Positions 10,110-50,846 are shown, counted from the first letter of the stretch. The stretch is DNA of 64,000 nt from Thermoanaerobaculia bacterium (GCA_963664405.1 OY761158.1:2816001-2880000); one strand, 5' to 3'. Numbers and translations: made by a program. The notes: a model not told the origin generated them from the sequence alone.

Positions 10110-10277
10110 CTAGTGGACCGTAACACCCAGACGTTGAGCGCCTGAGCGGCCCTCGCGGCCGATCTCTGCGTTACGCTTCCTCGACATAGTCCCCGATATG
10201 CCTGCGTCAGCGCGCCTTGATCTCGACCACGAATGACTCACTCAGCCACTAAACGTTCGAGTGTTACGGTCCACGAG
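10110..10277 (-). repeat. ~167-bp palindromic intergenic element, copy A
   Basis: Perfect 14-bp inverted repeat GTGGACCGTAACAC (10113-10126 / 10261-10274); the minus-strand core CAAGGCGCGCTGACGCAGGCATATCGGGGACTATGTCGAGGAAGCGTAACGCAG matches copies B and C. Confidence 0.9.
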
Positions 10278-10368
10278 TCGTTTATTGCGTTTTTACAGAG
10301 AGCGGGCTAGCGTCGGCTGGCCGCGACCCATCGTCATGGGAGTATCCCACGGCGCTCGAGGAGCAGAA

Positions 10369-11403
10369 ATGAGTGACCTTTCCAAGACCATCAAATGCGC
10401 CTTTCTCCTGCTGGCTCTTTTCTTCGTTGCCGTCGGAGCGTCTTCTCAAGAGGTGGCCGCGAAGGCCCCCCGTGCTGTGCTCGTCCAAGCGATTCACGAC
10501 TTCGGAGAGGTTGTCTACGGTCATAAAGTGAGCCACGAGTTCAAGGTGCGAAACACCGGCAACGCCATGCTCGAGATAGCTCGAGTCAACTCGACCTGCA
10601 ACTGTACTGTTGTCGACTTCGACGCCAAGATCCCCCCCGGTGGGGAGGGGAAGATAAGCGTGGTCGTCAGCACGGAGACGCAGGGCGGGCCTTTCGCTGT
10701 GCTAATGACCGCCGTCACCAACGATCCGGATAGGCCCCGGATCGAGATGTCGCTAAAGGCGGAGATCAAGTACCGCATCAAGGCGAAGCCCGGCTACGTG
10801 CGCTATATCGTCGTTCAAGGTTTCGAGGGCGACAGTCTAGTCGCGCAGACGCTGTGGCCGGCGGACGGTAAACCGATATCGATCAAGCAGGTGGACTCTC
10901 CCTACGATTTTGTCGAGGCTACCTTTCGCGAGGCACGAGAGGAGGAGCGGGAGCCGGATATCAAGGGGCAGCAGTGGAGAATCGAGACCACCATCTCACC
11001 CGACGCGCCCGTGGGTCCCCTCACTGGGTTTCTCGACGTGCATATCGAGAACTCGGAACAGAAACTCGCCAGACTGCCACTGAGCGGGTTCGTTCGTCCG
11101 ATGATTGCGGTGACCCCTCCGACCGTCGACCTGGGTAGTTTCGAGGTCGCAGAAGATGGCTATCGGGCCAGCGTTTACGTCAAGTCTTTCACTACCGAAG
11201 AGATCGTCATCAGCGCGGCCGAGACTACAGTCGAAGGGATCGATGCGGAGATCCGAGAAGACGAGCCAGGGAGGACCTATTACGTCATCGTCAGGGTTAG
11301 CCCCGAGGCCGCCAAAGGCGACTTCAAGGGACTCATACGAATCAAGACAGAAAGTCCGAAGAAGCCCGTGGTCGAAGTGCCCTTGAAAGGGACAGTGCTC
11401 TAG
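10369..11403 (+). CDS. DUF1573 domain Ig-like exported protein
   Basis: Signal peptide; HDFG...FKVRNTGNAMLEI..V.STCNCT...IPPGGEGKI; GAGGAG RBS. Confidence 0.82.
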   Translation: MSDLSKTIKCAFLLLALFFVAVGASSQEVAAKAPRAVLVQAIHDFGEVVYGHKVSHEFKVRNTGNAMLEIARVNSTCNCTVVDFDAKIPPGGEGKISVVVSTETQGGPFAVLMTAVTNDPDRPRIEMSLKAEIKYRIKAKPGYVRYIVVQGFEGDSLVAQTLWPADGKPISIKQVDSPYDFVEATFREAREEEREPDIKGQQWRIETTISPDAPVGPLTGFLDVHIENSEQKLARLPLSGFVRPMIAVTPPTVDLGSFEVAEDGYRASVYVKSFTTEEIVISAAETTVEGIDAEIREDEPGRTYYVIVRVSPEAAKGDFKGLIRIKTESPKKPVVEVPLKGTVL

Positions 11404-11443
11404 GAGCTCTGGCAGTGGGCGGTCCTGACCCTCGGTCGCCGCG

Positions 11444-12274
11444 TTACAACTTCTCCGGGTCTCCCCATAGATCGCCCTCGCTCTTGGGGCTGGCTGGCCG
11501 CCGCTCGCGCCGTTTCTCGACGCTGGCCACCTGTTCCAGAACGGGGGTGAGCACTTCTTGCTGCTTCTGATGGAGGATTCGAAGGCCGTCGAATGCGAGG
11601 TCGACGAGGGCATTGAGCTCCTCCCTCGAGAAGCTTCTCTCCTCGCCAGTGCCCTGAATCTCGACGACCTGCCCCGAGCCGGTGCCGACGATGTTCATAT
11701 CCACTTCGGCACTCGAGTCTTCGGCGTAGTCGAGGTCGAGCGAGGGGGCACCCTTGACCAGGCCTACCGAGATTGCCGCGAGGCTGTCCAGCATCGGCCA
11801 TCGGTCCAGATCACCGGCGGCGAGGGCCTGCGCGAGGGCTTGCACAACGGCGACGTAGCCGCAGCAGATCGAGGCTGTCCGTGTCCCGCCGTCAGCCTGT
11901 AGCACGTCGCAGTCGACAGTGACCGTGAGACCTGGCATGGCTCGCAGGTCCACGACAGCGCGCAGGCTGCGACCGATCAGACGTTGAATCTCCGAGGTCC
12001 TTCCCGAAGGCCGTCCTCGGGACACCTCGCGCTGCGAGCGGGTGTGGGTCGCGCGAGGCAGCATCGCGTACTCGGCGGTCAGCCAGCCTTTGCCGCTGTC
12101 CTCGAGAAAGCGGGGCACGCGCCGTTCTACGGATGCCGTAGCCAGCACTCGAGTGTCACCTACGTCGATGAGAGCCGAGCCCTCTGCGAACTTATTCACG
12201 CCGAGCTGAATGGAGACCGGCCGCAGCTGATCTAGCAGGCGGCCATTCGAGCGAGTGTGGTTCTTCATGGTCAT
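11444..12274 (-). CDS. rph: ribonuclease PH
   Basis: [48 protein letters not shown]. Confidence 0.97.
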
Positions 12275-12342
12275 TTGGGTTCTTGCCTCTCTCCGGTCGC
12301 ATCGGGGGTTGCCCCATGGTCTCAACAATGATCCGTCCGAGC

Positions 12343-14480: not shown

Positions 14481-14538
14481 CGCAGGGTAGAATATCATCG
14501 CTCACCCACTGCCTGTGGTCTATGCTGCGTTTCAGATC

Positions 14539-16098: not shown

Positions 16099-16131
16099 CC
16101 GGCGCTCTCTAGCGGCGTATTCTCGACGGGC

Positions 16132-20171: not shown

Positions 20172-20259
20172 ACGGGAGCCAAGCCCGACAGAATCGGACG
20201 CGGTCCATTCGAATCCTTGAGGCGATCTGACGCCGGGTGTAGGATCCGAGGGTGCTCTT

Positions 20260-22025: not shown

Positions 22026-22081
22026 TTCTTGCCTCCTTTCAACAGCGGACGCCTGCGAGTTTAGCCGTCACCAGGGCGAAG

Positions 22082-37720: not shown

Positions 37721-37759
37721 AGACGCGCGCCTTCGCGAAGCCGTGCCGGGGGAGTCCTT

Positions 37760-38621
37760 GTGAGCTCGACTTGGGAGATCGGCGTGAGAGTGGGCGCCTT
37801 CGCCGTGGTCTTTTCTCTGGTGGCGCTGTGGGAGATTCTCGGCGCGCGCCGTGCGCTCAGCTGCTCCCGCCGCCAACGCTTGGTTCGCCAACCTGGGGTT
37901 GGTGGTCGTGGACACGGTGGTGGTGCGCGTCCTCTTTCCACTCACTCTGGTGGGTGTTGCGATGACGGCCGAGGCACGCGACTGGGGCCTCCTTCGGCAG
38001 CTTTCGGTGCCCTTCCCGGTGACGCTCGGTGTGTCGGTGGTTCTTCTCGACTTCGTCCTCTATCTGCAGCACCTGCTCTTCCACGCCGTGCCGGCACTGT
38101 GGCGCCTCCACATGGTGCACCATGCCGATCTCGACTTCGACCTCACCACCGGCCTCCGCTTCCACCCTGTTGAGATCGCCCTTTCGTTGGCGCTCAAGAT
38201 GGGAGTCGTCCTGCTGCTCGGCGCACCGCCGTTGGCCGCGCTCGTCTTCGAGGCGCTGCTCAACGGCACCGCGCTCTTCAACCACGGCAATGTGTCGTTG
38301 CCGGTCAGGCTCGAAAGGGTGACGAGGTGGTTGTTAGTGACTCCAGACATGCATCGAGTGCATCACTCGGTCGCGCGCCCAGAGACCAACAGCAACTTCG
38401 GCTTCTGTCTGTCGTGGTGGGACCGCCTCCTCGGCACCTATCGACAGAGCCCGAAGTCGGGTCACGACGGCATGCAGATCGGTCTTGACCACCTTCAAGA
38501 TCGCAGCCATCAGTCTCTGCCCTGGCTCCTCGCTCTCCCTCTGCGCGGCGACACAGGCTCTTATCCCTTTGGCTTCGGCAGGAAAAGACGACTCAGGAGA
38601 GGCCGAGGGAGAATAGGCTAG
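37760..38621 (+). pseudogene. sterol desaturase family protein, +1 frameshift at ~37880
   Basis: N-terminus (..ALWEILGARR..RQR) and body (WFANLGL, HLLFH, HMVHH, HRVHH, NSNFG) are in different frames, joined by CGC-T-TGG. Confidence 0.78.
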
Positions 38622-38784
38622 TGTCGTGTCCCGGAAATGCCTGCCTAATAGATCGAGGTCATTTCGTTCGCTGCCAAGGCGCGTCGAGGCAGGCATATTG
38701 AGAAATCTGTCGACGAGGCGTAACGAAGGCAGCGAGCGAAAGGGGCCGAGCTATTGGGTAGGCATTTCCGGGACACGACACTAA
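38618..38784 (+). repeat. ~167-bp palindromic intergenic element, copy B
   Basis: TAGTGTCGTGTCCCGGAAATGCCT is perfectly inverted at the right end; shared core. Confidence 0.92.
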
Positions 38785-38789
38785 GAACG

Positions 38790-39563: not shown

Positions 39564-39609
39564 TAGTTATCACTTCCTTCGGAAGCCGCACATGGCGCCG
39601 AGGACGGCG

Positions 39610-40227
39610 TTACTCCGCCACGCTGAAGGGCAGGACCCCGACCGTGTTACCCCACGCCAAGGCGAGGGCTCCCCCTGCGCTGGTGACATCACTGAAGAAG
39701 TAGGTCAGCTGATCGATCGCGATCTCGTTGGGAGTCACCATCATCGGCGCGCGAACGACGTCGTAGTCGCTGCTGTACCCGTAGGCGCCCCAGGTGACGC
39801 CGCCCGCTTCGATCTTCTCTCGATCCGGCGCCGGCAGGTAGTCCTGCTTCGAAAAGATGGCGGTCCATGCGCCCTCTTTGAGGTCGATGAAGAAGCTGTA
39901 CTCGCCCGCCGGAAGCTTGGTCTCGCCGATCATGAGGTCGAGCTCGGTCTTGATTCTGGTCGTGACATTGGCGCCGGCTCTCCACACCGGCGCACCCAAG
40001 TAGAGCGTCTTGCCATAGCTCTCGCCGGAGCCGAAGATGTCTGCGCGGCCGCGTAGAATCGGCCGGCTGTACTCGATCTCGATCCAGGCGTCACCGATCT
40101 GGGTGGCCACAGATCCTTGGGGGCTCTTGGGCATTCCACCCTGAGCGGAGGCTACTCCGCCCAAGAGGACAGCCAGAGCGAAGGTGGTAGCGATCAACAG
40201 GACTGCGTTCTTTGGAAGCGTGCGCAT
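39610..40227 (-). CDS. DUF2911 domain-containing exported protein
   Basis: SP.G, IEYSRPILRGR, VWRAGAN.TT, LPAGEYS, WGAYGY. Confidence 0.88.
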   Translation of the reverse strand: MRTLPKNAVLLIATTFALAVLLGGVASAQGGMPKSPQGSVATQIGDAWIEIEYSRPILRGRADIFGSGESYGKTLYLGAPVWRAGANVTTRIKTELDLMIGETKLPAGEYSFFIDLKEGAWTAIFSKQDYLPAPDREKIEAGGVTWGAYGYSSDYDVVRAPMMVTPNEIAIDQLTYFFSDVTSAGGALALAWGNTVGVLPFSVAE

Positions 40228-40317
40228 GAACATCTCCTGAGCTAGTGGTGAGGCGTTTTTTGGGTCGAAAGCCGAGCCTAGCGGATTCCGCAGGCTGGCG
40301 CATAGTTCAGTCTCATC

Positions 40318-41328
40318 CTATCTCCGCGCCGCCACCATCTGCAGCGCGACGTCGATCGCTGCGAGCATGCTCTGCGGTCGCGCCGTACCCGTGCCCGCGA
40401 TGTCGAAGGCGGTCCCGTGATCCACCGAAGTCCGAATAATGGGCAACCCGATGCTGACGTTGACACCGTTGTCGAAGGCCAGCAACTTCATCGGAATGTG
40501 CCCCTGGTCGTGGTACATGGCGACAACGATGTCGTAGGCGCCGTTGACCGCGCGCATGAATACGGTATCCGGGGGCTGCGGCAAAGAGACGTTGAGGCCA
40601 CGCGCGCGCGCAGCCTCGATCGCGGGAACGATCTCTCGCGCCTCTTGGTCGCCGAAGAGTCCGCCCTCGCCGGCGTGTGGATTGAGGCCGGCAATGCCGA
40701 TGCGTGGCTCTGCGACGCCCAACAGAAGACAGGATTCGTGAGCCATATCGATCACTTGACCAATACGTCGGCGCTCCACGAGTTGCACTGCTTCCGCGAG
40801 AGGAATGTGGGTACTGACGTGCACGATGCGGAGCTGAGGAGCGACCAGCAGCATCGTTACCTGCTTTGCCCCGGTGCGCTCTGCCAGTAATTCGGTATGG
40901 CCAGGGTAGTGATGCCCGGCCAGATTCATCGCTTCTTTGTTGAGGGGCGCGGTAACGACCGCCTCGACCGCTTCGGCCATTGCCAGGTCGCAGGCGCGGC
41001 AGACGTAGTCGACGGCCGCCTTGCCCGCCACCCGGCTGACTCGGCCGGGTGGGCACTGGCTCGGTGGAGCGTTCTCGAGATCGAGGAGGGTGACGCTTCC
41101 TGGAGCGTATCTACCCTCTGCCGGCTCCTCCACGACTTCGAAGGGCGGGCTCCAGTCGACCCACTCCGAGGCTCGCTGCAGCTGACGGAGATCGCCAATG
41201 ACCAGCGGCCGGCAACGCTCGAGAAGCGTCGGCACTTGCAGCGCCTTGAGCACCACTTCGGCGCCGACGCCGGCGGGATCACCCATGGTCAGAGCGAGAA
41301 TCGGCCTGGATGAATCCGCTGTAGGCAA
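40318..41328 (-). CDS. pdxA: 4-hydroxythreonine-4-phosphate dehydrogenase family (PdxA/PdxA2)
   Basis: TMGDPAGVG, TAPLNK, GHTE, GLNPHAGE, AMYHDQG, RTSVDHGTAFDIAG; AGGAG before TTG 41328. Confidence 0.92.
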   Translation of the reverse strand: MPTADSSRPILALTMGDPAGVGAEVVLKALQVPTLLERCRPLVIGDLRQLQRASEWVDWSPPFEVVEEPAEGRYAPGSVTLLDLENAPPSQCPPGRVSRVAGKAAVDYVCRACDLAMAEAVEAVVTAPLNKEAMNLAGHHYPGHTELLAERTGAKQVTMLLVAPQLRIVHVSTHIPLAEAVQLVERRRIGQVIDMAHESCLLLGVAEPRIGIAGLNPHAGEGGLFGDQEAREIVPAIEAARARGLNVSLPQPPDTVFMRAVNGAYDIVVAMYHDQGHIPMKLLAFDNGVNVSIGLPIIRTSVDHGTAFDIAGTGTARPQSMLAAIDVALQMVAARR

Positions 41329-41403
41329 TCCGTTCTTCTCCTCTCCGACGATACCAACCCGTCGAGCGAGAAGGCACGCGAGATCGAGTATTCTTTTTGC
41401 CAA

Positions 41404-42711
41404 ATGGGTGAGCTCCTTCTCCCGGCGCCGTCGCCGGCGCGGCTACGCCAAGCCCTGGAGAGAGGCGAAGTGACTCTCGTCGAGCATGTCGAGGGTGTAC
41501 TGGCCCGCGTCGAGAGGCACGAGCTTCGAGTTCGAGCCCTGGTGCCAGAGACTCGCCGGCGAGAACGTGTGCTGGGTGAGGCCGAGGCACTCCGCGACCG
41601 ATTCCCCGAGCCGTCGGAACAAACTCCCCTGTATGGCGCCCTGGTTGGTATCAAGGACATCTTCACGGTAGCGGGCCTGCCGACCGCATGCGGCTCGGCT
41701 CTTCCTCCCGAGGCCTTCGAGTCCGCGGAGGCCTCCTGTGTCACACGCTTTCGTGCGGCCGGTGGACTGGTTCTGGGCAAGACGATCACTACCGAGTTCG
41801 CCTTCTTTAGTCCCGGCGCCACCACTAATCCCCACGATGCGGGCCACACCCCCGGCGGCTCGAGTAGCGGATCGGCGGCCGCCGTGGCCAGCGGCTACGT
41901 ACCGATCGCCTTCGGTTCTCAGACCGTCGGCTCGGTGATCCGTCCCGCTGCTTTCTGCGGAGTGGTGGGGTTCAAGCCTAGCTATGGACGCATTCCCGGC
42001 GACGGCATGTTGTCGTTCTCGAGGTCCGTCGACTGCCCCGGGCTTCTGGCCGTCGATCTCGCCACCGTTTTCGCGGTCGCCGCGGTGGTGATCGAGGACT
42101 GGTCCTCGACGGTAGCGAGCGCTGACATGCCCACGGTCGGCGTGCCGACTGGCGTCTACTTGGACCAGGTTGAGGCGGGAGCGCGGGCCGCGTTCGAAAG
42201 CCAGCTGGCGTTGCTCGCGAGATCCGGTGTCGAAGTGAAGCAGGTCGCCCTTCTGGACGACTACGGCGAGATTGCGGACCGTCATCAGGACTTGATTGCG
42301 GCGGAGTTCGCGCGCACCCACTCCGACCGTTTCGCGCGCTGGGGCTCGCTCTACTCGGGCCACAGTGCCGGGCTCTACGATCGTGGGCTCCGCCTCGGCG
42401 AGCACGCGATTCTCAGCGGGCGACAAAGCTCGAGAGACCTGAGATCGCGCTTAGAGTCCCTTATGGACGAGCACGGCATCGATTTGTGGGCGACGCCGGC
42501 GGCAACCGGCCCGGCGCCGAGCGGACTCGACAGCACCGGCGACCCGAGAATGAACTTGATCTGGACCCACGCCCTCATGCCAGCACTCACCTTTCCCATG
42601 TCGAACGATGGGGGGTTGCCGCTGGGGCTTCAGTTGGCGGCTCGGGTTGGTGACGATGAACGTCTTCTGGTCTGGGCCCAGGCCTGTGCTGCGGCCTTGG
42701 GAACGGCTTGA
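41404..42711 (+). CDS. amidase signature family protein
   Basis: GIKD, GKTITTEFA, PGGSSSGSAAAVA, GSQTVGSVIRPAAFCG. Confidence 0.92.
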   Translation: MGELLLPAPSPARLRQALERGEVTLVEHVEGVLARVERHELRVRALVPETRRRERVLGEAEALRDRFPEPSEQTPLYGALVGIKDIFTVAGLPTACGSALPPEAFESAEASCVTRFRAAGGLVLGKTITTEFAFFSPGATTNPHDAGHTPGGSSSGSAAAVASGYVPIAFGSQTVGSVIRPAAFCGVVGFKPSYGRIPGDGMLSFSRSVDCPGLLAVDLATVFAVAAVVIEDWSSTVASADMPTVGVPTGVYLDQVEAGARAAFESQLALLARSGVEVKQVALLDDYGEIADRHQDLIAAEFARTHSDRFARWGSLYSGHSAGLYDRGLRLGEHAILSGRQSSRDLRSRLESLMDEHGIDLWATPAATGPAPSGLDSTGDPRMNLIWTHALMPALTFPMSNDGGLPLGLQLAARVGDDERLLVWAQACAAALGTA

Positions 42712-42718
42712 TGGGCCG

Positions 42719-44263
42719 CTATTGCGGCGGTTCCAGCGGCGGCTGCGGGTCCAACGGTTTCAGGTCCCGTCCCCCAAGACCGGGATAGTCCGGCGCCAGC
42801 TTGGCGGCGCGCCAGACTCCGAGGCCCAGTTCGCCGCCGCCACCCCAAGGGTCGGATCCGTCGCGCTGTTTCACGCTGCCGGAGTACGGGTTGCCGAAGT
42901 TCCACACCGTTTCTCCCTGCGGCGTGACTTCGAACAGGCGGCCCTCGGGTCCCGAAGTAGCGAAGGTGTTGCCGTTGGCGAGACGATGGGCACCGGAGAT
43001 GAACGGGGCGAAGAACGACTCACGGTCGCCGGTGGCGTAGGTCCAGACGGTCTCGGCCGGCCCCCAGGCCGCGCCTTCAGCGTGCGTGTAGCTGCCGTCC
43101 GTGGCCAGGGGCGAGGTGATCTCTTCTATCGAGGAGTATTTGCCGTCCGGTCGTTCGTTGCCGTTGTTGAAGATGGTGAGGTTTCCTGCGCCCTCCATTC
43201 CGGGCGGGATCCACTGCACGTCGTGGGGGTAGAAGAGTTTCTTGTCTCCGGGCCCGCCGCGGCCGTACATCTCAGGATTGCCCCAGCGGTAGAGGAGATC
43301 TCCTTTCGGCCCTGCCGACTCCTCGGTCGACTTCGGTCTGGCGATGATCCAGATCTCCCCGAGCTCCGGCACCGCCATCGCGATCTGGTCGAGCTCGGGA
43401 TTCCAGTCGACGGCGTTGATGTGCAAGAAGTCTGAACGCTGCTTCTCCTGCTCGGCGTCGTCCGGAACGTAACCGAGTGCCTTGAGCTCGGCGAGCTGCT
43501 CTTCGTCGATCTCGAGGGGAGGGCCGCCGGCGTTGATGTCGAGGCGCTCGGGATGCTCCGACGGTTCGCCGAAGTTCGGCAGATCGGGATCCTGGTTTTG
43601 GAGAAGGTGGTCCCAGACGTTCCATTTCCAGACGATGCGAGCGTCGTCCGGGGGCAGTGGCTCGATCTCGACCAGGAAGTCGGGCCACAGCCCCTTCTCC
43701 GGAATCAAGTCGGCTCGTCGCCCTCGAGATCGCGCCTCCTCGGGTGACTTGACTTCCCACCCGATCGCAAGAAAGTTGCCGTTCGCTAGTGGCTCGACGT
43801 CGTGGTGCAGGATCCTGGTCTCGTCCGAGAGCTTCCACTCCCAGAGTAGCTCGCCCTCCCAGCTGAACTTCTGCACCAGGCCCATCGCGCCGCCGACCAG
43901 GAACGACTTGTCGTCAGGGTTGCGGCCCGGCCGCAGCAGACTCCCGTCTTCGAGCAGGTAGAGAGAGTGCGGTGCGTAGTCGCTCTCCCACATGTGGACC
44001 GCTCTGGCCTGACGGTCGAGGAGGTAAGTGTTGCCCGAGCTGAGTGGCGAATAGAGGACATAGCCCGGCGCGGCGTCGTCGGTCGAGAGGATGAGGCCTC
44101 GAGGCGTCGGCGGCTTCTTCGCTCGCTCGCTCGAGTCTGGCGCCTTGGCCTCCGCGAGGTCGCCTCCACTAACCGTCTCCTCACTCTCGGGGGTGGAACA
44201 TGCCAGGGAGAGAGCCAGGGTAAGGATCGCCCAATTGTGCCGGCGTGCGGAGGGGTTCATCAT
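42719..44263 (-). CDS. aryl-sulfate sulfotransferase (ASST-like) lipoprotein
   Basis: LACS lipobox, PGYVL, HHD, HINAV, LYRWGNP, PHD, FNNG, ISGAHRLANGNT. Confidence 0.8.
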   Translation of the reverse strand: MMNPSARRHNWAILTLALSLACSTPESEETVSGGDLAEAKAPDSSERAKKPPTPRGLILSTDDAAPGYVLYSPLSSGNTYLLDRQARAVHMWESDYAPHSLYLLEDGSLLRPGRNPDDKSFLVGGAMGLVQKFSWEGELLWEWKLSDETRILHHDVEPLANGNFLAIGWEVKSPEEARSRGRRADLIPEKGLWPDFLVEIEPLPPDDARIVWKWNVWDHLLQNQDPDLPNFGEPSEHPERLDINAGGPPLEIDEEQLAELKALGYVPDDAEQEKQRSDFLHINAVDWNPELDQIAMAVPELGEIWIIARPKSTEESAGPKGDLLYRWGNPEMYGRGGPGDKKLFYPHDVQWIPPGMEGAGNLTIFNNGNERPDGKYSSIEEITSPLATDGSYTHAEGAAWGPAETVWTYATGDRESFFAPFISGAHRLANGNTFATSGPEGRLFEVTPQGETVWNFGNPYSGSVKQRDGSDPWGGGGELGLGVWRAAKLAPDYPGLGGRDLKPLDPQPPLEPPQ

Positions 44264-44338
44264 GGCTTGGATCAGCTTCTCACGGATACAGCGCCCACGG
44301 CGGGTAGACTATGCCACCTTGATCCAGGAGGTTCACGA

Positions 44339-46849
44339 ATGTACGCCAAGCGCACCACAGCCCTCCTCTGTATCGTCCTGACGATTCTTCTAGTGACACC
44401 CGGGCACAGCGTGGTCACCCCTTCCAACCCGAACGGAGCTGAGCTCGCCCTGGCGCTCCAGAAGCTCTCGGTTCTGGGTAGCGTTCTCTACGTCGCAGCT
44501 CACCCGGACGATGAGAACACGGCACTTCTCGGCTACCTGGCTCGGGGTCGCTTGGCGCGAACGGCCTATCTCTCGCTGACTCGAGGTGATGGGGGGCAGA
44601 ACCTCATCGGCACCGAGCTTGGGCCGTTGCTTGGGTTGATCCGAACTCAGGAGCTGCTGGCGGCCAGGCATTTCGATGGTGCCGAGCAGTTCTTTACCCG
44701 TGCCATCGACTTCGGCTACTCGAAGTCGGTCGACGAGACGCTCGCGACCTGGGGCAAGCAGGAAGTGCTTGGCGATGTGGTCAGAATCATCCGGCGATTC
44801 CGACCCGACGTCATCATCACGCGCTTTCCCGCCGATGGCCGCGGCGGCCACGGCCATCACACTGCATCGGCGGTCCTCGCCATGGAGGCATTCGAGGCCG
44901 CGGCCGATGCGGAGAAGTTTCCCGAGCAGCTGCAGGGGCCCGAGGCGCTACAGCCCTGGCAAGCGACTCGCTTGATGTGGGATCGGTCGCGCTTCTTCGC
45001 CGGAGGTGCGGATTCGGGCTCCGGCGTGGAGGTCGATCTCGGAACCTACAGCCCCTTGCTCGGGCTATCGTTTACCGAGCTTGCCGCCCTCGGGCGCAGC
45101 ATGCACAAGAGCCAGGGTTTTGGCAGCGCCGGCAGTCGCGGCAGTCGCGTGAGCCGACTCGAGCATCGGTTGGGTATCGAGGCGCAGACAGATCTCTTCG
45201 ACGGCGTCGACACTACCTGGTCGCGAGTCACTGGCGGCGCCGAAGTCGGCGACATCCTGCGCCGTGCGGCGGAGAGCTTCGATGCGTCGCAACCGGCGAA
45301 GATCGTGCCCCAGTTGCTGAGAGCCGAGGAGCTTCTCGCGGCGCTGTCGCAAGCGCAGTCTCCCGCCGACTGGGTCGGGCCGAAATTGGCGGAGCTTCGA
45401 GAGGCCATTCGCGGGGCCTGCGGTCTGTGGCTCGAAGTCACCACCGACCGTGAGAGCGGGACTCCGGGCGCCGGCCTAAAACTCGAGTTAGCGGCGATCA
45501 ACCGATCCGAAGTGCCCGTTCGCCTGGTCGGTGTGAGCCTACCTTTTCATGGCGATGTCGATCTCGGAGAGGAGCTCGAGGCCAACCAGAACTGGAGTCT
45601 CGAGGTCGACTCCGTGGTTCCGGTGGATCAACAATCGACGGCTCCATACTGGTTGCGCCAGCCCACCGACGGAGCTCTCTTCCGGGTGTCAGAGCCGAAC
45701 CTGATCGGCCTCGCCGAGTGGCTGCCACTGCAAGCGCGTTTCGATCTTCGCATTGGTGATCGCGACCTCAGCTACGAGGTCCCGCTCCTTTATCGCTCCA
45801 GCGACCGGGTCGAAGGCGAGATGTACCGGACCTTCGAAGTCGTGCCCCCGATCTCCCTCAGTGTCGAGGAAGCGGTCTACGTTTTTGGCGACGGTGCTGA
45901 GCGAAGCATCGGAGTGAACCTACGCAGTACCGGTTCTCCGGCTCGAGGAGATCTTCGCCTGCGGCTACCGGCGGGTTGGAGCGGGGTGCCGGCGTCGGTT
46001 TCCTTCGATCTGAATGCCGGAACCGAGTCTCGCTTTTCCTTTTCCATACGGCCCCCGAAGGACTCTTCAACGGGAACGCTGACTGCAGAGGCGACCCTGG
46101 AGGGAAGCAGGGCGACTTTGAGCTCGGGAGTGAGAGCGATCAGCTATCGCCACATCCCGCCACAGACACTGCTCCCACCCGCCGAGGCTCGACTGGTGCG
46201 AATGCAGCTCGAGCGTCTCGGTGAGCGAATCGGTTATGTGATGGGAGCGGGAGACGAGATCCCGGGGGCTCTGCGTCAGGTCGGCTACCAGGTCACCCTG
46301 CTCACCGACAACGATCTCGCCGCCGCCGATCTCACTCCTTTCGACGCCATCATCATCGGGATCAGGGCCTACAACTCGCGACCCGCGGTGCTACAGCACA
46401 ACGCCAGGCTCCTCGAGTACGTGAAGAAGGGCGGTACGGTGGTCGCTCAGTACAACACCGCCTCTCGCTTCGGCGGCGGCCCCCCGGAGCTCGGGCCCTA
46501 CCCCTTTCACGTCTCGCGAGACCGGGTCTCGGTCGAGGACGCCGAAGTAACGCTTCTTCTGCCGGAGCATCCGCTCCTCACCACCCCCAATCAGATCACC
46601 GAGGCCGACTTCTCCGGCTGGGTGCAGGAACGCGGTCTCTACTTCCCCGATACCTGGGACGAGCGCTACGACGCCCTCCTGGCTTCGCACGACCCCGGCG
46701 AGCCCGATCGCAGTGGCGGGCTGCTCTATACGACCTACGGCAAGGGCGTTTACATCTACACCGGCTATTCCTTCTTTCGTGAGCTCCCTGCCGGTGTGCC
46801 GGGTGCCTACCGACTCTTTGTCAACCTGATTTCCGCTCGCCAGCAGTAG
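44339..46849 (+). CDS. PIG-L/LmbE family deacetylase with C-terminal accessory domains
   Basis: AHPDDE, TRGDGGQN, RTQEL, DFGYSK, HGHH, WVQERGLY; AGGAGG RBS; signal peptide. Confidence 0.9.
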   Translation: MYAKRTTALLCIVLTILLVTPGHSVVTPSNPNGAELALALQKLSVLGSVLYVAAHPDDENTALLGYLARGRLARTAYLSLTRGDGGQNLIGTELGPLLGLIRTQELLAARHFDGAEQFFTRAIDFGYSKSVDETLATWGKQEVLGDVVRIIRRFRPDVIITRFPADGRGGHGHHTASAVLAMEAFEAAADAEKFPEQLQGPEALQPWQATRLMWDRSRFFAGGADSGSGVEVDLGTYSPLLGLSFTELAALGRSMHKSQGFGSAGSRGSRVSRLEHRLGIEAQTDLFDGVDTTWSRVTGGAEVGDILRRAAESFDASQPAKIVPQLLRAEELLAALSQAQSPADWVGPKLAELREAIRGACGLWLEVTTDRESGTPGAGLKLELAAINRSEVPVRLVGVSLPFHGDVDLGEELEANQNWSLEVDSVVPVDQQSTAPYWLRQPTDGALFRVSEPNLIGLAEWLPLQARFDLRIGDRDLSYEVPLLYRSSDRVEGEMYRTFEVVPPISLSVEEAVYVFGDGAERSIGVNLRSTGSPARGDLRLRLPAGWSGVPASVSFDLNAGTESRFSFSIRPPKDSSTGTLTAEATLEGSRATLSSGVRAISYRHIPPQTLLPPAEARLVRMQLERLGERIGYVMGAGDEIPGALRQVGYQVTLLTDNDLAAADLTPFDAIIIGIRAYNSRPAVLQHNARLLEYVKKGGTVVAQYNTASRFGGGPPELGPYPFHVSRDRVSVEDAEVTLLLPEHPLLTTPNQITEADFSGWVQERGLYFPDTWDERYDALLASHDPGEPDRSGGLLYTTYGKGVYIYTGYSFFRELPAGVPGAYRLFVNLISARQQ

Positions 46850-46900
46850 TGCGGCGCGGCTTCCGGAAATGATCGCTGTCATTTCCTCCAACTGCACATC

Positions 46901-48184
46901 ATGGCGCCACCGTTGAGCTCTTCCTCCGCGGTTAGACACTTCTACGGCTGGCCTCTCGCCGTTGTCGTCTGGCTGCTCTACGGGCTCCAGGTCGCGGGTT
47001 TCTATAGCTGGGGCTTCTACCTTCCGGAGATGTCCGAGGAGCTCGGCATCTCGAGGGCCAGCGGCGGACTCGTCTTTGGTGTGTCACTCTTCTGTGCGGG
47101 GGCGGCTGCTCCTCTGGTGGGGATGGCGATCACCCGCTTCGGCCTCCGACGGGTGATGACCGCCGGGTTTGCCGTCAGTGCCTTCGGCTACCTCGCCACC
47201 AGCCGAGCGCAGGGCTTCTGGCAACTCCTCGTCGTCTACGGCATCTTTACCGCCGGCACCCATGCCTTCGCAGCGGTTCTGCCTACGCAGACGGTGGCCT
47301 CGATCTGGTTTCTCCGTTACCGAGCTCGCGTGCTGGCGGGTCTACTCACCGCTGGGGGCATCGCCGCCCCCTTCATCTTCTGGTTCGACGCGTGGATCCT
47401 GCAGACCGCGACCTGGAGGACGGGCTGGGTGGTCATCGGTATTCTCAATTTCGTCCTTGCGATGATCGCCTACGCCTTCGTTCGTGATTCCCCGGAGAGT
47501 CTGGGCCAGCTTCGCGACGGCGCCGCCGCTGAGACAGAAGTCGCTCGCCCGACGGCTGCGAGCCCGCCGCCGGGCATCGACAGCGGGTTCACCGCGCGCG
47601 AGGCGATTCGCACTCCGCAGTTCGTGCTCTTGTTGATCTGCGGTCTCGGCTACGGGCTTCCTTGGGGGGTTTTAGGTAACCACAGTCGACTCCACCTTCA
47701 GGATCTCGGTTTCGAGATCGAGGCGGCGGCGGCGATTCTCTCTTCGATGGCGCTGGTCAGCATCGTTGGCCGAGTGACGGGGGGCTTCGGCGACTTCGTC
47801 TCCCCGTCCCGGTTGTTGGGGATAGCGCTGATACTCGAGGGGTCGGGTACCGGCTTGTTCCTGATCGCCACCACTCCAGGGCGCGCCTATGCGGCAGTGA
47901 TGCTGGTCGGGCTGGGTTTCGGCATGGCCTACATCAGTCAGGCTGCCACACTCGCCCGCTTCTTTGGCCGCAGAGCCTTCGCGACAACGACGGGAGTTCG
48001 ATACTTTGCCGGGGCCTTCTTTTTTGCCTTTGCCCCCGGGCTAACCGGCCGTCTCTACGACCAGACCGGCAGCTACACCATTCCCTTCCTCACCTTGATG
48101 ACGATCAGCCTGGTCGGGGCGGCCGTCGCCTTCGTCATGCCGCCGCCGGCACCGCGGACTATTCCGTCGCCGGAAAACCGGTGA
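46901..48184 (+). CDS. MFS transporter
   Basis: FYGW N-terminus, RFGLRRVM, about 12 TM helices, G.LYDQTGSY. Confidence 0.88.
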   Translation: MAPPLSSSSAVRHFYGWPLAVVVWLLYGLQVAGFYSWGFYLPEMSEELGISRASGGLVFGVSLFCAGAAAPLVGMAITRFGLRRVMTAGFAVSAFGYLATSRAQGFWQLLVVYGIFTAGTHAFAAVLPTQTVASIWFLRYRARVLAGLLTAGGIAAPFIFWFDAWILQTATWRTGWVVIGILNFVLAMIAYAFVRDSPESLGQLRDGAAAETEVARPTAASPPPGIDSGFTAREAIRTPQFVLLLICGLGYGLPWGVLGNHSRLHLQDLGFEIEAAAAILSSMALVSIVGRVTGGFGDFVSPSRLLGIALILEGSGTGLFLIATTPGRAYAAVMLVGLGFGMAYISQAATLARFFGRRAFATTTGVRYFAGAFFFAFAPGLTGRLYDQTGSYTIPFLTLMTISLVGAAVAFVMPPPAPRTIPSPENR

Positions 48185-48770
48185 GGCCCTCATCCATCTG
48201 GATGCGAAAGGCACCCAGAGCCATCGATACCATTTTGTACTGGCCGACCGTGAAGACGACGTCCATCAGCTGTTTTTCGTCGTATCTCGCATCGAGGTAG
48301 GCCCAGGTCCGGTCCGAGATTGTCGCGCTGCGGTCGAGCTCGTCCGCCGCTCGCAACAGAGCACGGTCGAAGCTCGACCAGCCTTGAGCCTCGGGTCCTT
48401 TGATGATGCCAGCGAGCTCCTCGTCGGTGACACCGAGCCCCTTCGCGGAGCGACTGTGGTAGCCCCATTCGTACTGCGCACCGTTGATGAACGCGGTGCG
48501 GAGAATGAGCAGCTCACGATCGCGCGCCGGCAGGGTGCTGCCGTTCAGAACATAGCCACCGAAAGGCCCCCATGCCTTCATCAGATCCGGATGTTGGGAG
48601 AGGGTCTTGATGAGATTGAGGGGTGACTGCGACGACTCGAGAGGCGGAATCCTCGGTCCCGGTGGCTGCTTCTGTGCATGCGCCTGTGGAGCGGAGGCGA
48701 CGAGACCCAGAATCAGAGCTGGCGCCATGCCTTTTGTGAACATCGATCGAAGCGACATGTGGTCCTTCAT
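48159..48770 (-). CDS. carboxymuconolactone decarboxylase/AhpD-like protein
   Basis: PRIPPL, RELLILRTA, YEWGYH, LLRAADEL, FTVGQY; AGGAG RBS. Confidence 0.85.
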   Translation of the reverse strand: MKDHMSLRSMFTKGMAPALILGLVASAPQAHAQKQPPGPRIPPLESSQSPLNLIKTLSQHPDLMKAWGPFGGYVLNGSTLPARDRELLILRTAFINGAQYEWGYHSRSAKGLGVTDEELAGIIKGPEAQGWSSFDRALLRAADELDRSATISDRTWAYLDARYDEKQLMDVVFTVGQYKMVSMALGAFRIQMDEGLTGFPATE

Positions 48771-48875
48771 TAGAGCTCCTGTTCTTCGCGGCGCGACCGG
48801 CGCCACCATCCTTGGGTACGTTTTCGGATCCCCTCATTAGAGGGCTGCGTGCGCCGCATGTCAAGGCTGGCGGGG

Positions 48876-49733
48876 TCATTGGTATCGAGAGAGGGCCTCC
48901 GCGACCGCGGCCGGGTAGCTGCCCCCGAACTTGATCGCATGCACGACCAGAGGGGCCAGCTGATGCAGTGGCACCCTGTCTCTCCATCCCTCCTGCAGCG
49001 GAAACGCCTCCTGATAGGCGGAGAAGCACTCGGGCCCGAAGCCGCCGAAGAGGCGCATCATCGCCAGGTCGAACTCGCGGTGGCTGCTGTGAGCGGCCGG
49101 ATCGATGAGCCAGTTGCGGCCACCGGCGCCGACCAATCGATTGCCGGCCCAGAGGTCGCCATGGAGTCGTGCCGGCGGCTCGGGGTCGCCGCCAAGCTCC
49201 TCGAGTCTTCCGGCCACGCCCGCGAGCTGCCGCAAGGTCTGATGAGGCAGTGCGCCGCCGTCTTGGGCAAGCCGTGCAAGTGGCTGCAAACGCTGAGTTG
49301 CATAGAACTCGATCCAGCTCGAGCAGGGTTCGTTGGGGATCCCCCTGCTGCCGGTGGAGCGCCGGTCTTCGCGCCCGAAACAAGGTGCTCCGCTTTGATG
49401 CAGAGCTGCCAGTGACCGCCCCAGGGAGGCTTCGGTGTCGGGCTCAGCCGCGCCCTCTTCGATCCACTCGAGCACCAAGAACGGTGGGTCGTCCGACACG
49501 GCAAGAACGTTTGGAACATCGATGGCGTTGGAGTCGCCTATCCAGACCAGCCCGGCAGCCTCGGTACTGAAGTGGTTGGGCGGCGGTGTCGCGTGGGTCT
49601 TGGCGAAGACGCGACGTTCATCCGCCAGATCGAGGCGATACGACATCGCGACATCTCCGCCGTGGACGCGGGCGACGGCCGAGATCTCGCTTCCGAGCTC
49701 GTAGGCAATGCGGTCGAGCAAGCTGTCTGCCAC
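48876..49733 (-). CDS. fructosamine kinase family protein
   Basis: HGGDV, EAAGL, LHGDLWAGN, IDPAA, HREFDLAMM.LFGG. Confidence 0.92.
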   Translation of the reverse strand: MADSLLDRIAYELGSEISAVARVHGGDVAMSYRLDLADERRVFAKTHATPPPNHFSTEAAGLVWIGDSNAIDVPNVLAVSDDPPFLVLEWIEEGAAEPDTEASLGRSLAALHQSGAPCFGREDRRSTGSRGIPNEPCSSWIEFYATQRLQPLARLAQDGGALPHQTLRQLAGVAGRLEELGGDPEPPARLHGDLWAGNRLVGAGGRNWLIDPAAHSSHREFDLAMMRLFGGFGPECFSAYQEAFPLQEGWRDRVPLHQLAPLVVHAIKFGGSYPAAVAEALSRYQ

Positions 49734-49756
49734 TTTGCAGCCGACCTCAGCTGTGC

Positions 49757-50643
49757 CTACTCGGCGCCGTCGTAGGGAGGAGGCGCGCTTGGACCGAAGC
49801 CGAGGACGGTGGAGGGTGGCTCCAGGGCCGACGACAGATCCTCGAAGTCGTCGCCCGTGGCTAGAAATAGCTCAGTTTGGTAGCCCGGCTTCGTTGTCCA
49901 GTTGGCGCCCACGATCTTGAGATCGAGCTCAGCGACGAGGGTGAGGAAGTATTTCCAGTCGTAGTACACCGCCTGCGAAGGGTCGCAGTCGTTGACGAAG
50001 ACAGTGTGTTGGTGGGGAGCCAGCACTGGGAACCAGTCGCGGTTGAGGAAGAACCAGGTGGTGCGCAGGAGGCCCGTTTCGCCGATCATCTGCAGGCACT
50101 CACGTAGGTAGAACTCGGTCTGTCGCTGGTAGAGATGAGTGAAGATCGAATGAGCGTTGATCAGTGTGAAGTCCGAACCGTAGCAGTTGATCGCGAGAGT
50201 GTCGCGACGCGTATTCTGCGGTGCATAGGTCGGACTCCAAACATCGTGGTGATCGAAGACCACATCCACCCCGGGCATGCGAAGGTTGGTCCGACACCAA
50301 TCGATCATGCCGGCATGGACGTCAACACCGACGTAACGTTCGGGCGGGACTCGCTGAAGTAGCAGCTGGCGAGCATTGCGGCCGCAGCCGCAGCCGAAGT
50401 CGAAAACCCGTTTGTAGGCCTCCCTGGGTGCGAGGGCCCGATTGCGAGATCTCCCCAGACCGGGTCGCCGGAAGGGTTGTCGAAGACCGCCTTGTCGGTC
50501 GGGCCGACGATCTGCCGGTACTCGAGAGGCGGGAAGGGCAGCTCTCGTGGATCTGCCGCGCCCTCGGCTGGCTCGTGTGCGCTGCCCTTCCCACCAAAAG
50601 CTGCGAGGGCAGCGGCGAGGCTTCGCGGTCGACGTTTCTTCAT
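49757..50643 (-). pseudogene. class I SAM methyltransferase, -1 frameshift at ~50435
   Basis: LPFPPLEYRQIVG..FDNP in one frame, VFDFGCGCGR..SIFTHL in another; one extra C in GGGCCC joins them. Confidence 0.78.
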
Positions 50644-50678
50644 CCTCGCTCCGGCCCCGGGCTCCCGCTTCTTGGGCG

Positions 50679-50846
50679 CTAGAGACCAGCGTTTCCAAAG
50701 TTCGTGTGCAATAGCTCGAGGTCATTCTGTTCGCTGGCCAGGCGCGCCGACGCAGGCATATTGGGCAATATATCGAGGAGGCGCAACGCCGCCAGCGGGC
50801 AGAAGGGGCCGAGATATGTGCGCGAACTTTGGAAACGCTGGTCTAG
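50679..50846 (+). repeat. ~167-bp palindromic intergenic element, copy C
   Basis: Perfect 22-bp inverted repeat AGACCAGCGTTTCCAAAGTTCG (50683-50704 / 50823-50844); shared core. Confidence 0.92.

Follow-up and report, generated by a model that had tools for sequence, protein, structure and literature searches.

The window analysed here, a stretch of 64,000 nucleotides, carries three copies of a short hairpin element, and we conclude, with a probability of roughly 0.6, that this element is a MITE of the IS630 type which is moved via its ends and whose conserved core, foldable on one strand only, is reused between other arms. As an element it is of a known kind, and the novelty is its conserved middle. 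The conservation of the core, its combinations with different arms, its G.A juxtapositions and its tolerance of G.T mismatches only are the unusual part, and they are established statistically.

Three hairpin elements in the window

Defined by sequence, fold and clustering, element A (10110..10277, minus strand), element B (38618..38784, plus strand) and element C (50679..50846, plus strand) belong to the subfamilies sf1, sf4 and sf0, with 35, 11 and 142 copies in the genome, respectively. The first-pass annotation had described them as hairpins of about 167 nt with 54-nt cores and with the end tetramers CTAG/CGAG, CTAG/CTAA and CTAG/CTAG, and its coordinates, core sequences and tetramers were all reproduced. 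The CTAG half-sites lie at 10110-10113, 38618-38621, 50679-50682 and 50843-50846, and the variant ones are CGAG at 10274-10277 and CTAA at 38781-38784, the flanks of B being CTAG...CTAA. At the left junction of C there are two additional bases (CTAG-AG-ACC...) relative to the sf0 consensus. By Pfam matches and crude gene calls, A is placed between a Mur-ligase gene (8612-10084, minus strand) and a DUF1573 gene (10369-11403, plus strand), and the crude gene calls put B between the plus-strand genes 37851-38621 and 38820-39563.

All three are near-perfect hairpins of ~167 nt. Folded as RNA on the strand defined by the core, with 200 shuffles each, they reach -97.9 kcal/mol for A (z -10.3), -113.8 kcal/mol for B (z -14.8) and -102.3 kcal/mol for C (z -10.1), and 0 of 200 shuffles was as good in each case. 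A repeat search recovered the inverted arms of the elements together with the common core, an imperfect apical hairpin of ~70 nt whose conservation far exceeds that of the arms. In A the core spans 10150..10217 on the minus strand (68 nt; repeat search and alignments) and has 78% complementarity with that of C on the other strand; in B it spans 38667..38735 (plus strand, approximate limits from alignments and the position of AGGCGCG), and in C 50730..50798 (plus strand, approximate limits from alignments and a pattern match), where it fits the cross-phylum pattern AGGCGCNNYGASGMAGGCRTA-N8-16-YGASGAR-N2-3-GYRACG. The proposed comparison with Rfam matched no family, as Rfam 15 gave no match at gathering score in the window, and the one match at E <= 1 on L003, to a miRNA model, lies outside the element and is attributed to chance. 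Nor is a mobilising enzyme found within the window, as had been noted from the start.

Copies, subfamilies and genomic setting

The three copies had been taken to imply a non-autonomous mobile element with many more copies in the genome, and this is borne out by 245 core matches detected by nhmmer in the 6.78-Mb genome (125 plus-strand and 120 minus-strand) and by a paralogous empty site. On average there is one copy per 27.7 kb, the window with three in 64 kb being slightly denser. Short (166-168 bp in its own genome), non-coding and dispersed in many copies, the element has the size and copy number of prokaryotic MITEs.

The copies form clusters of 142, 35, 22, 16, 11 and 8 members, with 11 others (two pairs and seven singletons). 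In the genome A is near-identical to 34 other copies and B to 10, and C is a member of the 142-copy cluster; the arms of A, B and C differ because each belongs to a different subfamily. The arms thus diverge between subfamilies, but not between copies in general as first described, and the ends have common features, namely an AGTG start after CT in six of seven subfamilies and recurrent GT at positions 7-8 and C at position 11. The claim that the element reverses the ordinary MITE pattern must be restricted in the same way: it holds between subfamilies, with an identity of 0.78 in the central 56 nt versus 0.53 in the arms, and fails within a subfamily, where the whole element is 89-98% identical.

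Regarding the genomic setting, 208 of the 245 copies fall between genes according to the crude gene calls, and gaps between convergent genes are enriched, holding 72 copies (29%) while making up 596 of 3520 gaps (17%). This setting, together with the very stable RNA fold and the occurrence of a single copy at a purD-side locus that two Bifidobacterium species share, would suit RNA elements that serve the host, for instance by ending transcription, stabilising mRNA or encoding small RNAs, and are retained by the cell, their mobility being secondary. We regard this as the least probable of the explanations considered, and indeed as improbable. Enrichment at gene ends is expected from purifying selection on any insertion; element orientation bears no relation to that of flanking genes (67 sense, 63 antisense), yet a good hairpin forms in one orientation only; neither a promoter-like site nor a T-run terminator was seen in copy C; and copy numbers vary wildly among related genomes, from 0 to 88 strict-pattern matches.

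Target site and ends

Bounds of the form CTAG...CTAG are present in 169 of 217 full-length copies, and all six subfamily consensi have CTAG on both sides. The copy at G000:C1:6225673-6225839 lies inside another repeat, and the paralogues of that repeat have a single CTAG, giving a paralogous empty site in the same genome. Terminal inverted repeats, a target signature and an empty site, as in MITEs, are accordingly all present. Discordant flanks occur as CTAG...CTAA in nine copies and TTAG...CTAA in two, and since the two flanks do not match in these variants, a 4-bp duplication is argued against. For IS630/ISY100, the available portion of PMC2170065 describes insertion into TA with TA duplication, and its reference list cites a preference of IS630 for TA within CTAG. 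CTAG flanks with discordant outer bases fit a TA duplication, although insertion into CT^AG without any duplication gives identical strings. In the flank tetramers, the inner AG/CT bases had changed 3 and 0 times on the left, compared with 15 and 14 for the outer ones, and 2 and 2 times on the right, compared with 9 and 16; as the inner bases vary less than the outer, this is unlike plain TA duplication followed by random decay, and junction insertions of the form CT+NN+AG account for part of the difference. Both ends and flanks are symmetric (CT|AG...CT|AG), and a palindromic derivative of the IS200/IS605 type (PATE-like), for which asymmetric ends and insertion 3' of a fixed tetra- or pentanucleotide, on one side alone, are expected, was rejected.

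IS630-family insertion sequences bounded by CTAG occur in the same genome (L001), in G034 (two types), in G095 and in G334. The ends in G095 (CTAGTGGAGTGGAAAG..., with bounds CTAGTGGAGTGG...) and G334 (CTAGTGTAGTGTTACA..., with bounds CTAGTGTAGTGT...) share their first 12-14 bases with the MITE ends of L238 (CTAGTGGAGTGTAAAT), of L166/L170 (CTAGTGTAGTGTCTCC) and of the present subfamily sf3 (CTAGTGTTGTGTCTCC), and the MITE ends are in this sense like those of IS630-family insertion sequences. In comparison with the IS630 ends of G000 and G034, the best score was also reached by 36 of 300 shuffles, so this resemblance does not exceed chance. The CTAG bounds, the empty site and the CTAG|AGTG ends of the IS630 family in related genomes lead us to class the element as an IS630-type MITE; the first-pass annotation had been unable to assign it to a named family, which still holds as regards Rfam but not as regards the kind of element.

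A search of the same genome with 40-nt ends of the six subfamilies returned no insertion sequence, and hence no autonomous element, with the ends of any of them, and gave only deletion derivatives, mini-elements, hybrids and one composite. PF13358 (DDE_3) has just two loci there, one of them 5'-truncated, and these start with AGTAC... and not with AGTG.... A co-occurring transposase had been proposed as a check, and PF13358 is indeed present in five of six copy-rich genomes tested (G000, G034, G039, G095 and G369); it is likewise present in all three tested genomes without the strict core pattern, so the co-occurrence does not discriminate, and it is absent from G004, which has 13 BLAST matches to the element in an assembly that is 94% complete and in 190 contigs. 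Among 40 related genomes, relatives of the IS630 transposase of the present genome (E <= 1e-20) were found in 4, the core in 13 and both in 2.

Two kinds of derivative bear on what is recognised. A core-less, CTAG-bounded mini-element of 29 bp with the same ends is found at ~9 further loci, and a 2.7-kb composite between MITE ends is found at two loci with different CTAG flanks. Together with the CTAG/TA target and the IS630-like AGTG termini, these indicate ordinary end recognition by a DDE transposase, against the earlier suggestion that the element is recognised by its fold.

A core conserved across phyla and foldable on one strand

The core pattern was found in at least 105 stretches of the searched genome contigs, in at least seven named groups; among the matches listed are Acidobacteriota/Thermoanaerobaculia, Gemmatimonadota, Omnitrophota, Desulfuromonadales/Geobacteraceae, Bdellovibrio, Gammaproteobacteria, Myxococcota and Bifidobacterium. 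Elsewhere the core is set between AGTG-type arms, between GAGC-type arms, a class whose target signature differs, or in hairpins of ~100 nt, and the length of ~157-168 nt is kept despite quite different arms. The distribution is patchy: of 401 genomes from the phylum, 9 have the strict pattern.

Conservation of the fold, and not of sequence alone, had been put forward on three copies and is supported by covariation in the larger set. Double changes occur in 39 of 47 pairs of the element across subfamilies and genomes, where 89.3% of cells pair versus 65.7% in shuffled and 39-45% in slid alignments, and in 12 of the 19 pairs in the cross-phylum core, where 91.9% pair versus 73.2% shuffled and 22-52% slid. 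One core pair, for example, alternates between C-G (22 sequences) and G-C (7), a second one between A-U (13) and G-C (12), and conserved G.A juxtapositions flank covarying Watson-Crick pairs in the core.

The mismatches show the same with respect to strand. Transition mismatches between the arms of the six consensi are 37 G.T versus 4 A.C, and those in the arms of 65 distinct elements of other genomes are 214 versus 61, the bias being present in each arm class (107:32, 46:14 and 61:15); like the arms, the core tolerates G.T and not A.C. Because arm mismatches are G.T rather than A.C, the hairpin stays foldable on one strand only, and the plus-strand RNA has the better minimum free energy in all six consensi, the advantage being 14-37 kcal/mol, as it also has in 62 of the 65 elements of other genomes.

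All this could in principle arise around a core that has no function, i.e. the leftover interior of one successful ancestral MITE that spread horizontally and exchanged its ends through nesting or recombination; the G.T excess would then be mutational, for instance from C-to-T change on one strand, and not due to selection on the fold. Such events do leave traces, as in an sf0/sf1 hybrid at G000:C1:3644743-3644874 and in a ~245-bp variant of sf0, in 11 copies, with another repeat inserted at an internal CTAG; the patchy occurrence fits horizontal spread, and every G.T mismatch can be written as a plus-strand C-to-T change. We think this explanation rather doubtful, since independent positions of the core covary, G.A juxtapositions are retained where a plain palindrome would pair, and from Bifidobacterium to Omnitrophota the core retains ~80% identity while the arms cannot be aligned. 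Moreover, the strand bias follows the orientation of the element though the copies lie both ways to replication and transcription, and to produce such a bias some process would have to read the element itself.

Recognition by ends or by fold

In Tc1/mariner cut-and-paste, as far as it is described in the available portion of PMC2170065, no single-stranded or hairpin intermediate is required, and the strand-specific fold is thus unaccounted for by the mobilisation model. It would be accounted for if an enzyme acting on single-stranded DNA, either a HUH Y1/Y2 nuclease or a tyrosine recombinase, read the plus-strand apical hairpin, cut at the stem base at a fixed distance and inserted the element into the centre of the palindromic CT^AG without duplication; the arms would then need only to pair and would be free to diverge. 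G.T tolerance along the entire stem, a constant length with different arms, and a conserved core with diverging arms all agree with this, and so do the inner AG...CT, which behave as part of the element with junction insertions between CT and AG, and a modest replichore bias, the plus strand being on the leading-strand template in 147 of 245 copies (Fisher p = 0.002). In addition, several subfamilies with different ends look young together (mean identity 95-98.5%) in a genome with just one intact IS630-like gene, and strict end-specific transposases would need several enzymes. Candidate enzymes exist in the form of 13 Y1_Tnp-like and 7 full-length Y2_Tnp genes, and an IS91-like element (Y2 transposase and integrase genes) is situated in the apical loop of MITE copies. 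We still hold fold-based mobilisation to be unlikely. The mini-elements share ends and flanks and lack the core; the composite moved as a unit with 2.5 kb separating the core halves; the ends match those that IS630-family insertion sequences carry in related genomes; and the different target signature of the second arm class fits a swap of transposase, not one fold-reading enzyme. A copy is found within 1 kb of only one of the 13 Y1 genes, and the IS91-like element has its own ends, its other five copies being outside MITEs.

As for the IS91-like element in the apical loop, the two composite copies may derive from one insertion, and a fragment of its end is found in a third MITE, in the opposite orientation.

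Returning to an IS630-type MITE moved by its ends, the outer arms would be terminal inverted repeats of the IS630/Tc1-mariner kind, inserting in CTAG, or more loosely YTAR, with the central TA apparently duplicated, and a putative transposase would cut and paste the element in trans as double-stranded DNA. The core would act while its strand is single-stranded, as RNA or as single-stranded DNA, and is most likely a putative protein-binding hairpin that aids the spread or persistence of the element; this would explain why it has been repeatedly retained or coupled anew to transposase-specific ends.

Comparison with known repeat families

MITEs derived from IS630/Tc1-mariner elements include the bacterial RUP of Streptococcus pneumoniae and the plant Stowaway. 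The present element resembles them in being small, non-coding and multi-copy, with terminal inverted repeats, a TA/CTAG target and long-hairpin folding, and with IS630-family insertion sequences of the same termini in related genomes. Unlike them, it has its interior and not its ends best conserved between subfamilies, this interior is also found with a second end class and in short hairpins of other phyla, the hairpin is preserved on one strand only, and the same genome yielded no cognate autonomous element. The attC sites of integrons are imperfect hairpins recognised by structure on one strand, with sequences differing between copies; they have conserved outer R''/R' boxes, a variable middle and cassette arrays beside an integrase, whereas the present element conserves its middle, and its copies are scattered one by one over CTAG sites.

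Correia/NEMIS of Neisseria and ERIC and YPAL of enterobacteria are palindromic intergenic repeats of 100-170 bp, inserted at TA and forming robust RNA hairpins, and for some of these families a functional site in the centre has been suggested. To our knowledge, each of these families is confined to one genus or family, while the present core, compared with them by description, spans several phyla and kinds of arms. ERIC is among the MITE families tabulated in the available portions of PMC3184786 and PMC10969869.

REP/REPIN sequences with their RAYT (Y1) transposases, the subject of PMC3116915 and PMC3733652, are likewise abundant intergenic hairpins. They are processed in single-stranded form, and so fold strand-specifically, with compensatory evolution of the arms, to which the present element can be likened. 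REPs are 20-40 nt long, with one end bearing a GTAG or CGTC tag, conserved arms and a free loop, and each RAYT gene has its own REPs on both sides. The present element has CTAG|AGTG ends, its loop region is the conserved part, and a REP/REPIN-RAYT system was rejected for want of a GTAG/CGTC tag at the ends and with 1 of 13 Y1_Tnp loci near a copy.

Chunjie, a MITE from Geobacter uraniireducens, as given in the available portions of PMC3184786 and PMC10969869, is A+T-rich and 178-235 bp long, with 21-bp terminal inverted repeats and 9-bp direct repeats. It is similar in being a MITE with a very stable RNA fold, and the present core also occurs in Geobacteraceae; unlike Chunjie as described there, the present element is G+C-rich, ~166 bp long and located in CTAG/TA.

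Three hairpins in the window and their subfamilies in the genome

The positions of three hairpins in the window, together with the core sequences quoted for them in the first-pass annotation, proved correct on re-reading: element A at 10110-10277 on the minus strand, and elements B at 38618-38784 and C at 50679-50846 on the plus strand. Each of them is a single long, almost perfect hairpin. The RNA fold energies are -97.9, -113.8 and -102.3 kcal/mol for A, B and C, with z-scores of -10.3, -14.8 and -10.1 respectively, and for none of the three did any of 200 dinucleotide shuffles fold as well. A repeat search of the window recovers the inverted arms and the common middle of all three. The comparison with Rfam, also proposed in that annotation, gave no family at gathering score in the window, and a permissive Rfam search of 3.2 kb around C returned one chance miRNA match, which lies outside the element. 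Copy C showed no promoter-like site. Contigs of related strains, taken from four DNA runs and compared with positions 38000-51500, skip about 276 and about 776 bases around B and C, with diverged flanks and no clean joint, and no conclusion is drawn from these gaps.

The window occupies G000:C1:2816001-2880000 in a genome of one contig, 6.78 Mb long and with 62.6% G+C. BLAST of the three copies against this genome produced 968 HSPs, merged into 268 loci, and a profile of the 96-nt middle found 245 copies, 125 plus and 120 minus, a count unchanged after one profile iteration; the many copies genome-wide that had been expected from the window alone are indeed present. Clustering at a threshold of at least 88% over at least 140 nt gave subfamilies of 142, 35, 22, 16, 11 and 8 copies, plus two pairs and seven singletons, and C falls in the largest (sf0), A in the second (sf1) and B in the fifth (sf4). 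The arms are thus not peculiar to each copy, as had been thought: the three window copies represent three subfamilies, each multi-copy. Mean pairwise identity inside the subfamilies is 0.89-0.985, and a comparison of their consensi gives an identity of 0.53 for the outer 32 nt of the arms and of 0.78 for the central 56 nt. Some 245 long palindromes, about 0.6% of the genome, are places where Thermoanaerobaculia-like genomes are prone to assembly breaks, deletions and mis-annotation.

Borders and target site

CTAG stands at both borders of every subfamily consensus, and the similarity ends there. Borders of the form CTAG...CTAG are found in 169 of 217 full-length copies, the commonest variants being CTAG...CTAA (9), TTAG...CTAG (4) and TTAG...CTAA (2). 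Empty CTAG sites, which the first-pass annotation had suggested looking for, exist as paralogous sites for two copies within the same genome and carry one CTAG; the copy at 6225673-6225839 splits another dispersed repeat, whose other copies have one CTAG at that place. Such borders and empty sites are the known signature of IS630/Tc1-mariner elements. In the excerpts of PMC2170065, ISY100 inserts in vitro into TA, which is duplicated, and a preference of IS630 for TA within CTAG is cited in the reference list of the same paper.

By position, the flanking tetramers vary in 15, 14, 3 and 0 copies on the left and in 2, 2, 9 and 16 copies on the right, so that the inner two bases are much less variable than the outer two. 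The outermost bases can differ from the left to the right border, and this speaks against a 4-bp duplication. Several border variants, copy C included, are junction insertions of the form CT+NN+AG. Insertion may instead have taken place into CT^AG without duplication, by an element ending AG...CT, and this would give identical border strings.

Ends of the element and the search for a transposase

For mobilisation of the IS630/Tc1-mariner type, our main model, the own genome offers two loci with PF13358 (DDE_3). The first, L001 (G000:C1:5163317-5166760, at about 863-2107 of this extract), is an IS630-family element of about 1.25 kb with CTAG...CTAG borders, the HTH and DDE reading frames of which are out of frame and joined at a run of seven C; the second, L002, is a 5'-truncated relative, 88% identical, with this run kept. 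The run in L001 may serve programmed frameshifting or transcriptional slippage. The ends of both loci begin AGTAC..., and their resemblance to the MITE ends is within the range of chance (best score reached by 36 of 300 shuffles). With the 40-nt ends of six subfamilies as BLAST queries, no autonomous partner was found in the own genome, and the only longer element with MITE ends that turned up in it is a 2.7-kb composite.

This composite is an sf0-like MITE carrying a 2536-bp IS91-like element in its apical loop, and it occupies two loci with unlike CTAG flanks (G000:C1:6272000-6275500 and 6758800-6761600). The insert codes for two proteins, Y2_Tnp + Zn_Tnp_IS91 (398 aa) and Phage_integrase (299 aa); being an IS91-like element with its own ends, it was rejected as the autonomous partner. 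Five more copies of a related IS91-like type sit outside MITEs. A fragment of the same IS91-like end is found, in opposite orientation, within the loop of a third MITE (G000:C1:2170967-2171108), and these occurrences in MITE loops may represent loop-targeted insertion.

Among 40 related genomes, the core was detected by BLAST in 13 and a relative of the L001 transposase (E <= 1e-20) in four, with an overlap of two. Among the copy-rich genomes, G034 has 8 matches to PF13358 and G039, G095 and G369 have 2 each, with none found in G004; three tested genomes that lack the strict core pattern have PF13358 too. The best link of the MITE to the IS630 family is provided by the elements of this family in the related genomes G095, with borders CTAGTGGAGTGGAAAG.../...CACGCCACTAG, and G334, with borders CTAGTGTAGTGTTACA.../...ACACTACACTAG. 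Their first 12-14 bases are common to MITE copies in public Thermoanaerobaculia assemblies (L238, L166, L170), and the ends are similar to the own subfamily sf3. What is more, the sf3 terminus folded back on itself forms a 29-bp mini-element, CTAG-TGTTGTGTCTCCGACATGGCA-CTAG, with a 10-bp stem, a 3-nt loop and no core. It is found outside the window at about nine further loci (e.g. G000:C1 515321-515349, 970853-970881, 1386499-1386527, 2162933-2162961 and 5442154-5442182), and two more such ends adjoin MITE copies. The occurrence of mini-elements and composite at several CTAG sites indicates that the ends suffice for movement. Because of the likeness to the G095 and G334 ends, the mini-elements and the composite, the arms are read as putative IS630-type terminal inverted repeats.

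Other known systems were considered as well. Chunjie, with 9-bp repeats, an A+T-rich composition and a length of 178-235 bp as given in the excerpts of PMC3184786 and PMC10969869, is unlike the present element, and membership of the same family was rejected on repeats, base composition and length. A co-occurring HUH/RAYT nuclease had also been proposed at first pass; Y1 genes are present in the genome without linkage to the copies, only 1 of 13 being near one, and a linkage of the RAYT type was discarded. Since the GTAG/CGTC tag of REP/REPIN is absent too, a REP/REPIN-like identity was rejected. Group II intron RT genes and DDE_Tnp_1 genes are also present in the genome and are not linked to the element.

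The core as a module across bacteria

MITEs are usually viewed as degenerate insertion sequences whose ends alone are important. The present element is in kind probably an IS630-type MITE, and the MITE itself is ordinary. Its pattern is the reverse of the usual one: the interior is conserved, exchangeable between kinds of ends, structured, and found in several phyla.

A degenerate core pattern was derived from the alignment (AGGCGCNNYGASGMAGGCRTA, 8-16 nt, YGASGAR, 2-3 nt, GYRACG), and at least 105 stretches in a species-representative genome collection match it. Among the matches listed, most are from Thermoanaerobaculia or Acidobacteriota assemblies, and the other groups are Gemmatimonadota, Omnitrophota, Desulfuromonadales/Geobacteraceae, Bdellovibrio, Gammaproteobacteria, Myxococcota and two Bifidobacterium species. 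Of 401 genomes sampled evenly from the phylum, 9 contain the pattern, the richest with 88, 34, 24 and 6 matches, and the pattern read backwards as a control has no match in this sample. Viral contigs and plasmids gave no matches to the core pattern.

Three kinds of arms surround the core among the matches listed. The first has CTAG|AGTG... ends as in the own genome, includes the Geobacteraceae copies, and is represented by an exact sf0-type copy in another assembly (L193). The second has GAGCYTGTGAA... ends beside TCA-like triplets, and the related genome G034 holds 89 matches to such ends, corresponding to about 45 copies. This GAGC/TNA end class may resemble the IS5-group (IS5/IS1031) elements; no IS5-like partner for it was identified in G034, where a 3.3-kb pair of GAGC-type ends was rejected as partner, with ordinary genes lying between. 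Most copies with AGTG-type or GAGC-type arms have a total length of 157-168 nt. The third kind, seen in Omnitrophota, Bifidobacterium, Gammaproteobacteria and some Gemmatimonadota, is a short hairpin of about 100 nt. A single hairpin of about 107 nt with the same core occurs in Bifidobacterium imperatoris and B. felsineum (L200 5640-5790; L226), apparently at the same locus in both species, with similar flanks; in L200 it lies between purD and an NlpC/P60-like gene.

The literature gave no description of this core, or of a MITE core common to different end classes; supplementary files and ISfinder were outside the scope of this search, and an earlier description under another name is possible. 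The new part, worth following, is a conserved, exchangeable core, foldable on one strand and spanning several phyla.

Constraint on the fold and on one strand

In an alignment of 20 elements from seven own subfamilies and seven other genomes, RNAalifold predicted 47 pairs, 39 of them with changes on both sides. Pairing holds in 89.3% of cells, against 65.7% after shuffling (reached by 0 of 500 shuffles) and 39-45% with slid partners. The pairing signal of the arms alone is what inverted repeats give anyway, and covariation in the core across phyla is more telling than that of whole elements. The cross-phylum core alignment (30 sequences) has 19 predicted pairs, and the covariation claimed for the core at first pass was borne out there in a RNAalifold-type analysis, with double changes in 12 of the 19; 91.9% pair, against 73.2% shuffled and 22-52% slid. 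The covarying pairs include C-G 22 / G-C 7, A-U 13 / G-C 12 and C-G 25 / U-A 4, at positions left free by the search pattern. They are flanked by conserved GA dinucleotides on both strands (5' CGA[C/G]G... opposite ...CGA[G/C]GAG), and a plain palindrome would not retain such opposed dinucleotides.

Moreover, the whole stem bears the signature of selection on one single strand. When elements were oriented by the core and aligned to their own reverse complement with a symmetric score, the transition mismatches between the arms of six consensi were 37 G.T against 4 A.C, and 17 against 1 in the subfamily-specific outer 35 nt. In 65 distinct elements of other genomes, the arms beyond the central ~60 nt have 214 G.T against 61 A.C, or 107:32, 46:14 and 61:15 by arm class, the classes being set by a simple regex and the class 'other' including some misfiled class-1 and class-2 copies. 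The RNA of the plus strand has the better energy in all six consensi, by 14-37 kcal/mol, and in 62 of the 65 elements. The mismatch bias is reversed, at 1:6, in a single copy from the related genome G005. This strand-specific constraint is real in the statistics, and mobilisation leaves it unexplained, because Tc1/mariner cut-and-paste, as described in the excerpts of PMC2170065, needs no hairpin or single-stranded intermediate.

Genomic placement and possible function

Gene context was taken from a codon-bias gene caller, so that the neighbour counts are approximate. Within tandem gene pairs, 67 copies are sense and 63 antisense (p = 0.79), and the orientation of the element is unrelated to neighbouring genes. 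Convergent gaps are enriched (72 of 245 copies vs 596 of 3520 gaps) and divergent gaps depleted (43 of 245 vs 874 of 3520), as expected of tolerated insertions. With origin and terminus placed by cumulative GC skew, 147 of 245 copies have their plus strand on the leading-strand template, a modest bias (Fisher p = 0.002), which fits either a strand preference during insertion or the loss of copies whose lagging-strand template carries the better hairpin.

The strand-specific constraint suggests that the plus strand has a function in its folded form, as RNA or as single-stranded DNA. We tentatively propose, with a probability of roughly one in three, that the apical hairpin of about 70 nt is an undescribed functional single-stranded module (RNA or ssDNA), with conserved tandem G.A motifs and covarying pairs, which has been repeatedly joined with ends from two or more DDE transposon families across at least seven bacterial phyla. 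Such a module would either recruit a conserved host factor boosting the transposition or survival of its carrier, or be the unit read by a fold-reading enzyme. A functional core would mean that a widespread structured motif is absent from Rfam, and would offer a clue to the success of some MITEs, for example through host-factor binding, ssDNA hairpins at replication forks or action as RNA.

Other repeats in the genome

An sf0 variant of about 245 bp is present in 11 copies (e.g. G000:C1 481085-481330, 657300-657544 and 706532-706780), eight of which were inspected in sequence, with a small repeat (GAGCCTGCGAAGCAGGCGAGTAG...) inserted at a CTAG created within the MITE, and two copies have a second small insertion on the right side. 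At G000:C1:3644743-3644874, an sf0 left end and half is joined to an inverted sf1 half, a hybrid which suggests recombination within or near the shared core. Nested and deleted derivatives of the MITE also occur.

A small CTAG-flanked palindrome, CTAG-CTTTCGAAAATGATA...TCATTTTTGAAAG-CTAG, is located at G000:C1:6225836-6225880, with paralogues e.g. at about 194230, inside a dispersed repeat of at least 17 copies; with this second CTAG-flanked palindrome family, CTAG appears as a landing site common to several small repeat families. A 2376-bp element with at least 20 full-length copies, 99.9-100% identical (e.g. G000:C1:594351-596726), has the look of an insertion sequence that multiplied very recently. 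The 13 matches to Y1_Tnp (PF01797), which have no linkage to the MITE, are weak (22-40 bits, e.g. at 6395600, 2208475 and 412965) and lie in open frames of 303-443 aa, a length well above that of the classical IS200 or RAYT proteins. Within the window, 24361-24660 and 27901-28200 form a 300-nt direct repeat of 96% identity, 3540 nt apart, which covers the beginning of two paralogous genes of 381 aa (24361-25503 and 27901-29043); these have more stretches in common upstream.
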